Origin: an uncultured delta proteobacterium
GTDB lineage: Bacteria > Myxococcota_A > Polyangia > Fen-1088
NCBI GenBank assembly: GCA_963796685.1
Contig: CAWCMR010000025.1
Location: 1,056,001 to 1,120,000 of the forward strand
Length of the DNA: 64,000 nt
Reading direction: 5' to 3'
Below, in pieces: positions 1-53,582 of this stretch (position 1 is the stretch's first letter; each line of letters begins with the position of its first letter). The position numbers and the translations under genes are program-made. A model generated the notes under the pieces. That model made no database searches and was not told the origin of the DNA. It was given only the letters and a program-made list of their open reading frames with translations.

Positions 1-105
1 GTCTTGATTGGGGGTGGACCAGGCTCTTTTGGCCGGCAAGACATGGACGTCGAGCGTGGCCTTGGAGACGTCGATACCTACGAATGTGTCAGCTGTTGGT
101 GTCAC
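1..105 (-). CDS. IS110 family transposase/recombinase, N-terminal part (continues beyond left window edge)
   Basis: Hand translation from GTG at 105: MTPTADTFVGIDVSKATLDVHVLPAKRAWSTPNQD. GIDVSK..LDV is the DEDD RuvC-like N-terminal motif of IS110; AAAGGAG just upstream. Not in the ORF track. Confidence 0.88.
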   Translation of the reverse strand, partial: MTPTADTFVGIDVSKATLDVHVLPAKRAWSTPNQD

Positions 106-137
106 GGGCTCCTTTCGCGAAGGACTTCTGCTCTTGG

Positions 138-384
138 TATGCCCAGCCTTGCGGAGTATGCGGGCTCGAGGCCCTCTCATCTGTTCGGGCTGCTTGTGAA
201 AGTCGACACGACGACCCTCGCTCACCCACGGTCTTTGTGACCTGAGGGGCATCGGTCTGTCGTGCCGTTGAATCTCGTCGTGCTCCTTCGCCTTTGGGGG
301 CGAGCGTAGCCCAGCTTTGCTGGGCGAAGCGAGGGGGGACCGGGGGACTGCGAGCGAGAGCGAGCCAGTCCCCCGTAAGATACA
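138..384 (-). ncRNA. Predicted bridge RNA (target-binding loop 207-264, donor-binding loop 141-190)
   Basis: Stem CACGAC-A-GACC/GGTC-GTCGTG encloses GATGCCCCTCA, hairpin GGTC-ACAAA-GACC and GTGGGTGAGCGAG. A second loop GCCCGA-ACAGATGAGA-GGGC..GCCC-GCATACTCCGCAAGG-CTGGGC resembles the IS621 donor loop. Transcript ends unknown. Confidence 0.75.
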
Positions 385-386
385 AG

Positions 387-625
387 GGGCTTTCCCCCCT
401 TGCCCACCCGTCCTCCTTGGATCACCCTCGCCCACCCGTCGTCCTCGGGTCCCCTCGCCCCGCGCAGCGGGGAGAGGGACAGGGTGAGGGGCTTCCCCCC
501 CTTGCCCACCCGTCCTCCTTGGATCACCCTCGCCCACCCGTCGTCCTCGGGTCCCCTCGCCCCGCGCAGCGGGGAGAGGGACAGGGTGAGGGGCTTTCCC
601 CCCCTTGCCCACCCGTCCTCCTTGG
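387..625. repeat. 102-bp tandem repeat (about 2.3 units) containing the BoxC-like palindrome
   Basis: cccctcgccccgcgcagcggggagagggacagggtgagggg starts at 451 and 553; intervening sequence also repeated. Confidence 0.9.
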
Positions 626-631
626 GCCTGT

Positions 632-994
632 TCAATCCACGTCGAAGAAGAGCGAGTCGCGCTGCTTGAGGAAGGCCTTGATGGCGTCCTTCGCCTGGAG
701 CGAAAGCTGCAGGAACTGAAGCCCCATGCCCGCCTCGCCGCCACCGCCGGGCAGCGCGGTCGAGCGCACCCAGCGCACCTCCGTGAGGGCGTCGATGGGC
801 TCGCGAGAGGTGGGCAGGGTGAGGCGCAACTGGATGCGTTCGCCCACCGGCCGAATCAGGTGGGTGGCCACGAAGAGACCGCCGCCGCTCAGATCCGAGG
901 TCAGCCCGGTGTAGAAGTTGTGCTCGCTCTCGAGGGTGACCGCCACGGCGACGGCGTAGCGAGGCTCCTGGCGTCGATCGGCGGGGGAAGTCAT
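632..994 (-). CDS. TIGR02266-type PilZ-domain protein
   Basis: RRQEPR (RxxxR) and DLSGGG (D/NxSxxG) motifs; SEHNFYTG..GGLFVAT is typical of the myxobacterial family. Confidence 0.85.
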   Translation of the reverse strand: MTSPADRRQEPRYAVAVAVTLESEHNFYTGLTSDLSGGGLFVATHLIRPVGERIQLRLTLPTSREPIDALTEVRWVRSTALPGGGGEAGMGLQFLQLSLQAKDAIKAFLKQRDSLFFDVD

Positions 995-1089
995 GACGAC
1001 CTTCAGTCTAGCCCGAAATCGCAACACAAGACGAATCGGGCCATCGCACACCCTGCGGCACCCTGGTTTCTGCTAGATTTGCGTGTGCA

Positions 1090-3715: not shown

Positions 3716-4880
3716 GTCCCCTCCCCGCCGCCTCCTCCTTGGGTCCCCTCGCCCCGCGCAGCGGGGAGAGGGACAGGGTGAGAGGCAACTTCCCCCTCCC
3801 CCACCGCCTCCTCCTCGGGTCCCCTCGCCCCGCGCAGCGGGGAGAGGGACAGGGTGAGGGGCAACTTCCCCCTCCCCGCCGCCTCCTCCTTGGGTCCCCT
3901 CGCCCCGCGCAGCGGGGAGAGGGACAGGGTGAGGGGCAACTTCCCCCTCCCCGCCGCCTCCTCCTTGGGTCCCCTCGCCCCGCGCAGCGGGGAGAGGGAC
4001 AGGGTGAGGGGCAACTTCCCCTTCCCCACCGCCTCCTCCTTGGGTCCCCTCGCCCCGCGCAGCGGGGAGAGGGACAGGGTGAGGGGCAACTTCCCCTTCC
4101 CCACCGCCTCCTCCTCGGGTCCCCTCGCCCCGCGCAGCGGGGAGAGGGACAGGGTGAGGGGCAACTTCCCCCTCCCCACCGCCTCCTCCTCGGGTCCCCT
4201 CGCCCCGCGCAGCGGGGAGAGGGACAGGGTGAGGGGCAACTTCCCCCTCCCCACCGCCTCCTCCTTGGACAGGGTGAGGGGCAACTTCCCCCTCCCCGCC
4301 GCCTCCTCCTCGGGTCCCCTCGCCCCGCGCAGCGGGGAGAGGGACAGGGTGAGGGGCAACTTCCCCCTCCCCACCGCCTCCTCCTTGGGTCCCCTCGCCC
4401 CGCGCAGCGGGGAGAGGGACAGGGTGAGGGGCAACTTCCCCCTCCCCGCCGCCTCCTCCTTGGGTCCCCTCGCCCCGCGCAGCGGGGAGAGGGACAGGGT
4501 GAGGGGCAACTTCCCCCTCCCCGCCGCCTCCTCCTCGGGTCCCCTCGCCCCGCGCAGCGGGGAGAGGGACAGGGTGTGGGCAACTTCCCCCTCCCCCACC
4601 GCCTCCTCCTTGGGTCCCCTCGCCCCGCGCAGCGGGGAGAGGGACAGGGTGTGGGGCAACTTCCCCCTCCCCACCGCCTCCTCCTTGGGTCCCCTCGCCC
4701 CGCGCAGCGGGGAGAGGGACAGGGTGTGGGGCAACTTCCCCCTCCCCACCGCCTCCTCCTTGGGTCCCCTCGCCCCGCGCAGCGGGGAGAGGGACAGGGT
4801 GTGGGGCAACTTCCCCCTCCCCACCGCCTCCTCCTTGGGTCCCCTCGCCCCGCGCAGCGGGGAGAGGGACAGGGTGAGGA
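3716..4880. repeat. 75-bp tandem array of BoxC-like palindromes (15 full units plus one 45-bp unit)
   Basis: Hairpin starts at 3745, 3821, 3896, 3971, 4046, 4121, 4196, 4316, 4391, 4466, 4541, 4616, 4691, 4766, 4841. The unit at about 4265 lacks the hairpin. No unique spacers. Confidence 0.97.
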
Positions 4881-53284: not shown

Positions 53285-53420
53285 CGAGCTTGCGAGGTAC
53301 TCGGAAGATTCACCTCGCCCCGCGAAGCGGGGAGAGGTCGCCGCGCGAAGCGGGGAGAGGTCGCCGCGCGAAGCGCGTCGGGTGAGGGGTTCGGCCATGC
53401 GAGAGAGTGCGCTGGCCCCT
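53285..53420. repeat. BoxC-like doublet, inverted copy of the MITE interior at about 13845-13955, interrupted at GCCCCT|CACCC
   Basis: Near-identical to the reverse complement of the 13.8-kb doublet, with an extra internal duplication. Confidence 0.85.
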
Positions 53421-53560
53421 TGTATCTTACGGGGGACTGGCTCGCTCTCGCTCGCAGTCCCCCGGTCCCCCCTCGCTTCGCCCAGCAAAGCTGGGCTACG
53501 CTCGCCCCCAAAGGCGAAGGAGCACGACGAGATTCAACGGCACGACAGACCGATGCCCCT
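53421..53560 (+). mobile_element. 140-bp orphan IS110 left end
   Basis: Reverse complement of 245-384; flanked by gctggcccct on the left and caccctagccc on the right. Confidence 0.88.
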
Positions 53561-53582
53561 CACCCTAGCCCGGGCGTCGGGC

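Follow-up and report, generated by a model that had tools for sequence, protein, structure and literature searches.

A clearly readable RNA-guided IS110 insertion sequence beside REP-like repeats in a bacterial genome, and the solo left ends that accompany it

In this study, a 64,000-nt stretch of DNA from an uncultured delta proteobacterium (hereafter the window; C25:1056001-1120000 of genome G000, 7.3 Mb in 26 contigs) was analyzed. Positions 1-384 of the window (minus strand) comprise the left end of a 1,253-bp IS110-group insertion sequence and the first 35 codons of its recombinase gene; the remainder of the element lies just upstream of the window. The recombinase gene (1..105, minus; 316 aa in total) starts with GTG at 105-103 and has AGGAG at 113-109, in agreement with a first-pass annotation, prepared from the sequence alone, which had placed a transposase start on the minus strand. 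Next to the gene lies the non-coding left end (106..384, minus), which begins with TGTATC at 384 and measures 279 nt, the initial estimate having been 280 bp. The left end of IS621 starts with TGTAT, too. The left end is the predicted source of the bridge RNA and holds the match to the covariance model described below. The left target half (385..390, minus), consisting of GCCC and the CT core at 386-385, abuts the left end and equals positions 4-9 of the left target guide. The element interrupts a 102-bp tandem repeat (386..640, minus). Also, the window contains a solo left-end remnant (53421..53560, plus) and, within the left end, an extra 5' module (297..382, minus).

By sequence comparison, the protein belongs to the IS110 family. 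It matched Pfam PF01548 (DEDD_Tnp_IS110; E 2.7e-23) and PF02371 (Transposase_20; E 9.6e-17), and the NCBIfam equivalog NF033542, "IS110 family RNA-guided transposase", was reached with 212.7 bits compared with a cut-off of 140. In the PDB, ISCro4 (E 2.9e-31) and IS621 (E 1.2e-26) were matched over residues 8-308, and the GIDVSK, EAT, KTDA-DA, and SG motifs are kept in the ISCro4 alignment. An N-terminal DEDD RuvC-like domain is combined with a C-terminal domain bearing the conserved serine.

Both ends of the element were read from the genome sequence. The left flank is ...AAAGCCCCT, while the right end, located upstream of the window, is ...GGAACACAGATGCT followed by CACCCTGTCC; the left junction is ...GCCCCT|TGTATC and the right one ...ACAGATGCT|CACCC. 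A right end of ACAGATG+CT followed by CACCC had been predicted beforehand and is present exactly in the upstream genome sequence. The right end covers only 23 nt, counted from the stop codon to the final CT. A long non-coding left end (279 nt) and a short right end (23 nt), without long terminal inverted repeats, are characteristic of the IS110 group. Removal of the element together with one CT restores the interrupted 102-bp repeat. Insertion is assigned to GCCCCT|CACCC, with CT on both sides, because the flanks were compared with intact units of the 102-bp repeat (GCCCCTCACCC).

A BLAST search in the own genome revealed six intact copies with 100% identity, one further copy split by a 2,075-bp insert at left-end nt 56/57, and seven loci with left-end fragments. 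In 7/7 full copies, the CT core is present at both junctions, the left flank ends with CCCCT (preceded by G in six copies and by A in one), and the right flank starts with CACCC. The mapping of genomic copies, suggested earlier as a check, found all seven full copies at the same site, in three different repeat contexts. The element had been described as sitting at GCCCCT|CACCC here and again at 53420; the first location holds, but at the second one only the 140-nt left-end remnant was found.

Two further observations were made on the copies. At G000:C25:706137, an eighth ACAGATGCT|CACCC junction occurs without the element, where a 9-nt right-end stub is joined to the target repeat's right half. 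The 2,075-bp insert was identified as a group II intron (G000:C11:75849-77923 and G000:C25:1543397-1545471, opposite strand), which interrupts left-end nt 56/57 in one full copy and in one remnant. It starts with GTGCG at its 5' end, carries a reverse-transcriptase/maturase ORF of ~580 aa with YADD, and was found by BLAST in ~11 more copies or places of the genome with 99.8-100% identity.

Within the interrupted tandem repeat, empty sites (GCCCCTCACCC) are located at 594-584 and 492-482, each with a REP-like palindrome 16 nt further downstream. In the whole genome, this 11-mer is present unoccupied 121 times, compared with ~18 occurrences expected from composition. Of these 121 empty sites, 65 have the REP-like palindrome (CTCTCCCCGC...GCGGGGCGAGGG) between -60 and +80 nt, nearly always 16 or 31 nt downstream. 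The 17 occurrences of GCCCCTCACCC in the window comprise 16 empty sites and the junction of the remnant at 53555. The first-pass annotation had named a "BoxC-like repeat" as target. The targeting of repeats stands, but the label was its own, and the targets flank the REP-like palindrome, for which at least three repeat contexts were found. Also, a tandem array with a 75-bp period (window ~3860-4510, minus) contains ten perfect unoccupied copies of GCCCCTCACCC, most of them followed by the REP-like palindrome.

For the analysis of the RNA, 80 related loci were retrieved with the protein, and the upstream regions of 19 of them could be aligned. Unguided RNAalifold of these 19 orthologues gave two stem-loops with an internal loop in each. 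In the element, the target-binding stem-loop (205..266, minus) is formed by the outer helix 254-266/205-217 and the inner hairpin 242-230, with guides at 253-245 and 227-221. The outer helix, which has one bulged base, refines a stem previously placed at 207-216/254-264, and the contents reported for this stem, GATGCCCCT(CA) at 253-245 and (GT)GGGTGAG(CG) at 227-221, were found again. The donor-binding stem-loop (142..192, minus) is formed by the outer stem 187-192/142-148 and the inner hairpin 174-162, with guides at 184-178 and 161-148. Among the 19 orthologues, paired cells amounted to 92.4%, compared with 36-42% when the partners were slid, and compensatory changes on both sides were detected in 14/23 pairs. 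In the target-binding stem-loop, these were 8/11 pairs in helix 1 and 2/4 in helix 2. On four of five measures, none of 500 shuffles reached the observed value.

A covariance model (R1) built from the RNAalifold structure matched 76/81 loci. Every match lay upstream of the gene and on its strand, at a distance of a few tens of bases. Folding and a covariance search had been recommended for the left end, and they turned out differently: the single-sequence fold barely beats shuffles (z -1.99), base-pairs one target guide with the other and was not counted as evidence, whereas the orthologue-built R1 matches this element at L001:2139-2271 (window 139-271, minus) with 110.6 bits. In window 1-1000, Rfam had no matching bridge-RNA family and returned only sub-threshold sX15 and chance microRNA-type matches. 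Judged from the alignment, the left end is predicted to encode an RNA with two internal-loop stem-loops, the structure of which is conserved. The layout described by Durrant et al. comprises a 5' stem-loop and two internal-loop stem-loops, the first of these being variable and the second conserved (PMC11208160).

The guides can be read within the two loops. The left target guide GAUGCCCCU (253-245) matches the left half of the target plus core with its last six bases, GCCCCU, while its first three bases (GAU) match no flank. The right target guide GGGUGAG (227-221) has 7 nt and is complementary to CT+CACCC in 7/7 positions. Thus, the earlier statement that GGGTGAG is the reverse complement of CTCACCC stands in full, and the equation of GCCCCT with the left target including the CT core is correct but covers only 6/9 positions of the guide. 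On the donor side, the left donor guide ACAGAUG (184-178) is identical in 7/7 positions to the 7 nt that precede CT in the right end. The two core positions behind it are AG, not CT, and the first of them is C in 15/19 orthologues. The region of the right donor guide, GCAUACUCCGCAAG at 161-148, was read by eye only. A discontiguous guide ...AU...GCAAG is proposed, with GCAAG facing CTTGT including one G-T pair and AU facing AT; this pairing is the least certain one, because the region is 3 nt longer than in the 18 other aligned orthologues. According to Durrant et al. 2024, the left guide has the sense of the target top strand and the right guide is complementary (PMC11208160), which is the polarity seen in this element. 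The same paper describes the core as part of every pairing, a right target guide that is longer in some orthologues, and a discontiguous right donor guide (PMC11208160).

For the comparison of guides and flanks among the orthologues, identical pairs were collapsed and loci with unmappable ends were left out. Outside the core, the five bases of the right target guide agreed with the right flank in 4.48/5 positions for cognate and in 1.38 for non-cognate combinations (27 unique pairs). For the left target guide and the left flank, the longest suffix match was 5.15 for cognate compared with 2.80 for non-cognate combinations (33 unique pairs). The observed agreement was reached by 0/10,000 permutations on each target side, figures which overstate independence because the orthologue loci are related. 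The left donor 7-mer plus core was found exactly downstream of the gene in 51/57 loci, compared with 11/11,373 for shuffled guides, and ten different combinations of left donor guide and end occur among the orthologues. Left-end boundaries were picked by TGTAT and the core from the right target guide, which is mildly circular, for the core only. On these sequence comparisons, the agreement between guides and flanks exceeds chance. As a side observation, the core positions of the right target guide are AA in L025 and L031. Both may be natural TT-core elements because of this AA guide core and because L025, the locus with both ends mapped, has TT on both sides; the left loop of both is without an obvious matching core.

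The whole is best explained by an element moving through bridge-RNA-guided recombination, and we assign this reading a probability of about 0.93. In the proposed mechanism, the left end would give rise to an RNA folded into two stem-loops that both contain an internal loop. Of these loops, the first would present the left target guide (GCCCCU, top-strand sense) and the right target guide GGGUGAG, pairing with CT+CACCC, while the second loop would present the left donor guide ACAGAUG for the right end and the discontiguous right donor guide facing CT+TGTAT of the left end. The element would leave as a circle, at whose junction TTGACT of the right end would be set 17 bp from TATCTT (left-end nt 3-8), thereby creating a sigma-70 promoter for the RNA. 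The complex of RNA and recombinase would put the circle into GCCCCT|CACCC, with CT on both sides, at a target 16 or 31 nt upstream of a multi-copy REP-like palindrome. The observations behind this reading are the protein family, the conserved RNA structure, the agreement and covariation of guides and flanks, the ends, the target consensus, and the identical copies; from the sequence, we infer transcription, circle formation, and guide dependence of recombination.

In the joined ends, TTGACT-17 bp-TATCTT scored 9/12, and the same geometry was the best one in 23/25 orthologues with both ends mapped. A promoter scan of the integrated copy detected no sigma-70-like site. This geometry fits the published circle-dependent promoter, which is rebuilt on the circle (Durrant 2024; PMC11208160). 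None of the public sequencing runs contained half of the sampled sequence words. In the covered parts of the contigs of four public runs, which carry no information on the strand, start, or level of an RNA, neither a circle junction nor an empty-site joint was seen.

The extra 5' module (297..382, minus; left-end nt 3-88) is predicted to form hairpins at 374-342 and 325-309 and also occurs as a stand-alone repeat of ~85 nt. Compensatory changes were found in 10/21 of its pairs, and no Rfam family matches it. The stand-alone module (loci L082-L091) has 83-96% identity and is found in related genomes without the rest of the element. It lacks TGTAT and is partly arranged in tandem, with four units in L082. 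In genomes of the same family, the module matched 13 times in G012, 16 times in G020, 13 times in G022, and 8 times in G015. In two soil metatranscriptome runs, contig depths of 366 and 687 were obtained over left-end nt 3-83 (L001:2301-2381, window 301-381), compared with ~0-40 in the remaining parts of the element; a DNA run gave 38. This measure is based on contigs only and includes other organisms. The metatranscriptome contigs also contained two "go back" joints of 58 and 83 nt. The depth peak may hint at the stand-alone 85-nt repeat and was not treated as expression of the bridge RNA.

The remnant at 53421-53560 is 100% identical to left-end nt 1-140. It is preceded by GGCCCCT (core at 53419-53420). 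Its last bases are the target-guide-coding GATGCCCCT; CACCC adjoins them at 53561-53565, and the full target is thereby regenerated. In G000, 4/7 left-end fragments stop at the target-guide DNA, followed by the right flank of the target repeat. Two of these four junctions are exactly GATGCCCCT|CACCC, including that of the remnant in the window, and two are decayed. G002, which belongs to the same genus, has eight full left ends and, in addition, 13 fragments that stop at left-end nt 136-141. Two solo left ends in G002 directly precede a full element, and one precedes another solo left end; in the case that was checked, the full element is followed by CACCC. By type, five junctions are exact (two in G000, three in G002), six have lost 2-4 bases, among them the core, three are degenerate in other ways, and two are GATGC|TCACCC.

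For the origin of these solo left ends, guide-directed recombination at the guide-coding DNA, which is a perfect left-target half-site with CT core, may be considered at somewhat below even odds; the CACCC junction would then regenerate a target that can be hit again. The recurrent stop at the guide DNA in both genomes and the solo left ends of G002 followed by a full element or by another solo left end argue for it. Moreover, two preprints report that IS110 elements recombine at half-matches, form partial circles and tandem non-coding units, and give rise to fragments that reintegrate (Xie 2026; Hu 2026). However, the junctions are heterogeneous, and the two GATGC|TCACCC cases fit a crossover in a 5-nt homology instead of one at the CT core. 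Neither a circle nor a nested intermediate was observed, and the informative data come from one element family and one genus only. If an intact copy had received an insertion into its guide-coding DNA, two diagnostic junction motifs would mark it, and both occurred 0 times in G000. In G002, the one full element checked behind a solo left end continues into CACCC and not into the remainder of a resident element, and an insertion of this kind was thus not detected directly.

Alternatively, the solo left ends could be plain slippage or microhomology deletions formed without the recombinase, an unlikely but sizeable possibility. The internal GATGC-CCC-TCA resembles the right-end junction GATGC-TCA, both regions thus having GATGC and (C)TCA, and the junctions of L098 and L099 in G002 are exactly those predicted for a crossover in GATGC. 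Other internal-deletion derivatives with both ends exist as well (L097 and L100). Homologies of 3-5 nt, however, rarely yield the same deletion at >15 separate loci, and the solo copies in G002 are more numerous than the full copies, which both speak against simple deletion.

In L097 (G002) and L100 (G001), an internal deletion has spared left-end nt 1-141 or 1-125 together with the terminal 43-57 nt on the right; both resemble miniature elements which a full copy could mobilise. Candidate solo left ends of another IS110 element in five Undibacterium-related genomes were not informative: the matches in G043 cover nt 1-122/123, one covers nt 1-109, and they are partly located at contig starts and look like assembly overlaps.

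Building on the guide-directed origin, we tentatively propose, with the odds rather against it, that guide-coding DNA could be a natural built-in target half-site and that recombination there could shed 140-nt solo left ends which attract insertions and build tandem arrays, while the first 85 nt would be a structured repeat that also spreads alone. Attraction of insertions and formation of tandem arrays would be expected because the full target is regenerated at the junction. If true, half-match bridge recombination would have left a footprint in the genome in the form of these solo left ends, with a recurrent, defined internal endpoint, and they may record the half-match and partial-element reactions of the 2026 preprints. 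The Hu 2026 preprint treats partial IS110 elements in general terms.

Another RNA is known from the same region of related elements. Among the Xanthomonas/Stenotrophomonas orthologues L068, L073, L075, L076, and L080, Rfam RF02234 (sX15) was matched in L073, L075, L076, and L080 with 107-149 bits, and no match was found in L068. In L073, L075, and L076, sX15 overlies the R1 match on the opposite strand. In a paper from 2011, sX15 and asX7 are described as mutually antisense, with 10 S. maltophilia homologues (PMC3300014). sX15 is probably the antisense partner of a bridge RNA, because it overlies the R1 match on the opposite strand and because of this mutual antisense relation. The idea that the left end of our element is a leader or antisense regulator of transposase expression, comparable to sX15/asX7 in Xanthomonas, and that the protein alone picks the site can draw on sX15 being Rfam's only match in the region apart from chance ones (29.4 bits compared with a threshold of 55, opposite strand), on its above-threshold matches at the same place and on the opposite strand in Xanthomonas/Stenotrophomonas orthologues, and on the detection of RNAs from both strands in Xanthomonas (PMC3300014), but it is highly improbable, since, among the orthologues, the loop sequences covary with both the target flanks and the ends of the element itself, for which a pure regulator has no reason, and since solved relatives use exactly this RNA as guide (PMC11208160). 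An antisense transcript could coexist with guiding by the bridge RNA.

The element is thus an ordinary but very clearly readable RNA-guided IS110 insertion sequence. The observation made in the first-pass annotation is confirmed, and its interpretation is supported, as each testable part held. As a discovery, the element contributes little: bridge RNAs have been known since their description in 2024, with predictions for 85.7% of the IS110-group elements (PMC11208160), the NCBI model already names the protein an RNA-guided transposase, and the supplementary IS110 orthologue lists of Durrant et al. may already include it. A literature search found nothing joining IS110, bridge RNA, and Myxococc*. 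The element can be useful as a clean natural example that offers guides, both ends, a target consensus, 121 empty targets, and identical copies in one genome. Also, ~75 orthologues with varied guide/target pairs can be mined as natural programming rules, for which the 7-nt right target guide, the short left-target match, and the two loci with TT core provide material.

Among the known systems, IS621 of E. coli is closely comparable. It shares the same two protein domains, with homology over residues 8-308, a left-end RNA with target and donor internal loops, the guide polarity, a CT core in each pairing, and insertion in REP-type repeats; the promoter rebuilt on the circle of IS621 has a predicted counterpart here (PMC11208160). 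The IS621 bridge-RNA layout claimed at the outset was borne out in the IS110 protein, the two-loop RNA, the guide polarity, and the CT core. In contrast to IS621, the left-target match has 6 instead of 9 nt and the right target guide 7 instead of 4 nt (PMC11208160). The left end is longer (279 nt compared with 191 bp in IS621; PMC11208160) because of the extra ~85-nt two-hairpin module. Further differences from IS621 are a longer linker in the right donor guide, another target repeat, and another host, and the element described here is known from sequence alone. The ISCro4 transposase (PDB 9t56) is the best solved relative (E 2.9e-31) with aligned catalytic motifs, a distant one that was compared by protein only. 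ISPpu10 and ISPpu9 of Pseudomonas putida, likewise of the IS110 family, are multi-copy elements at one conserved intergenic or REP sequence and are likened here by description only. sX15 (RF02234) covers the same left-end region in the Xanthomonas/Stenotrophomonas orthologues, but its model lies on the other strand than the recombinase gene and bridge RNA. With the IS1111 group, the element shares the protein family and the principle (PMC11208160), whereas the RNA lies in a long right end there and in the left end here.
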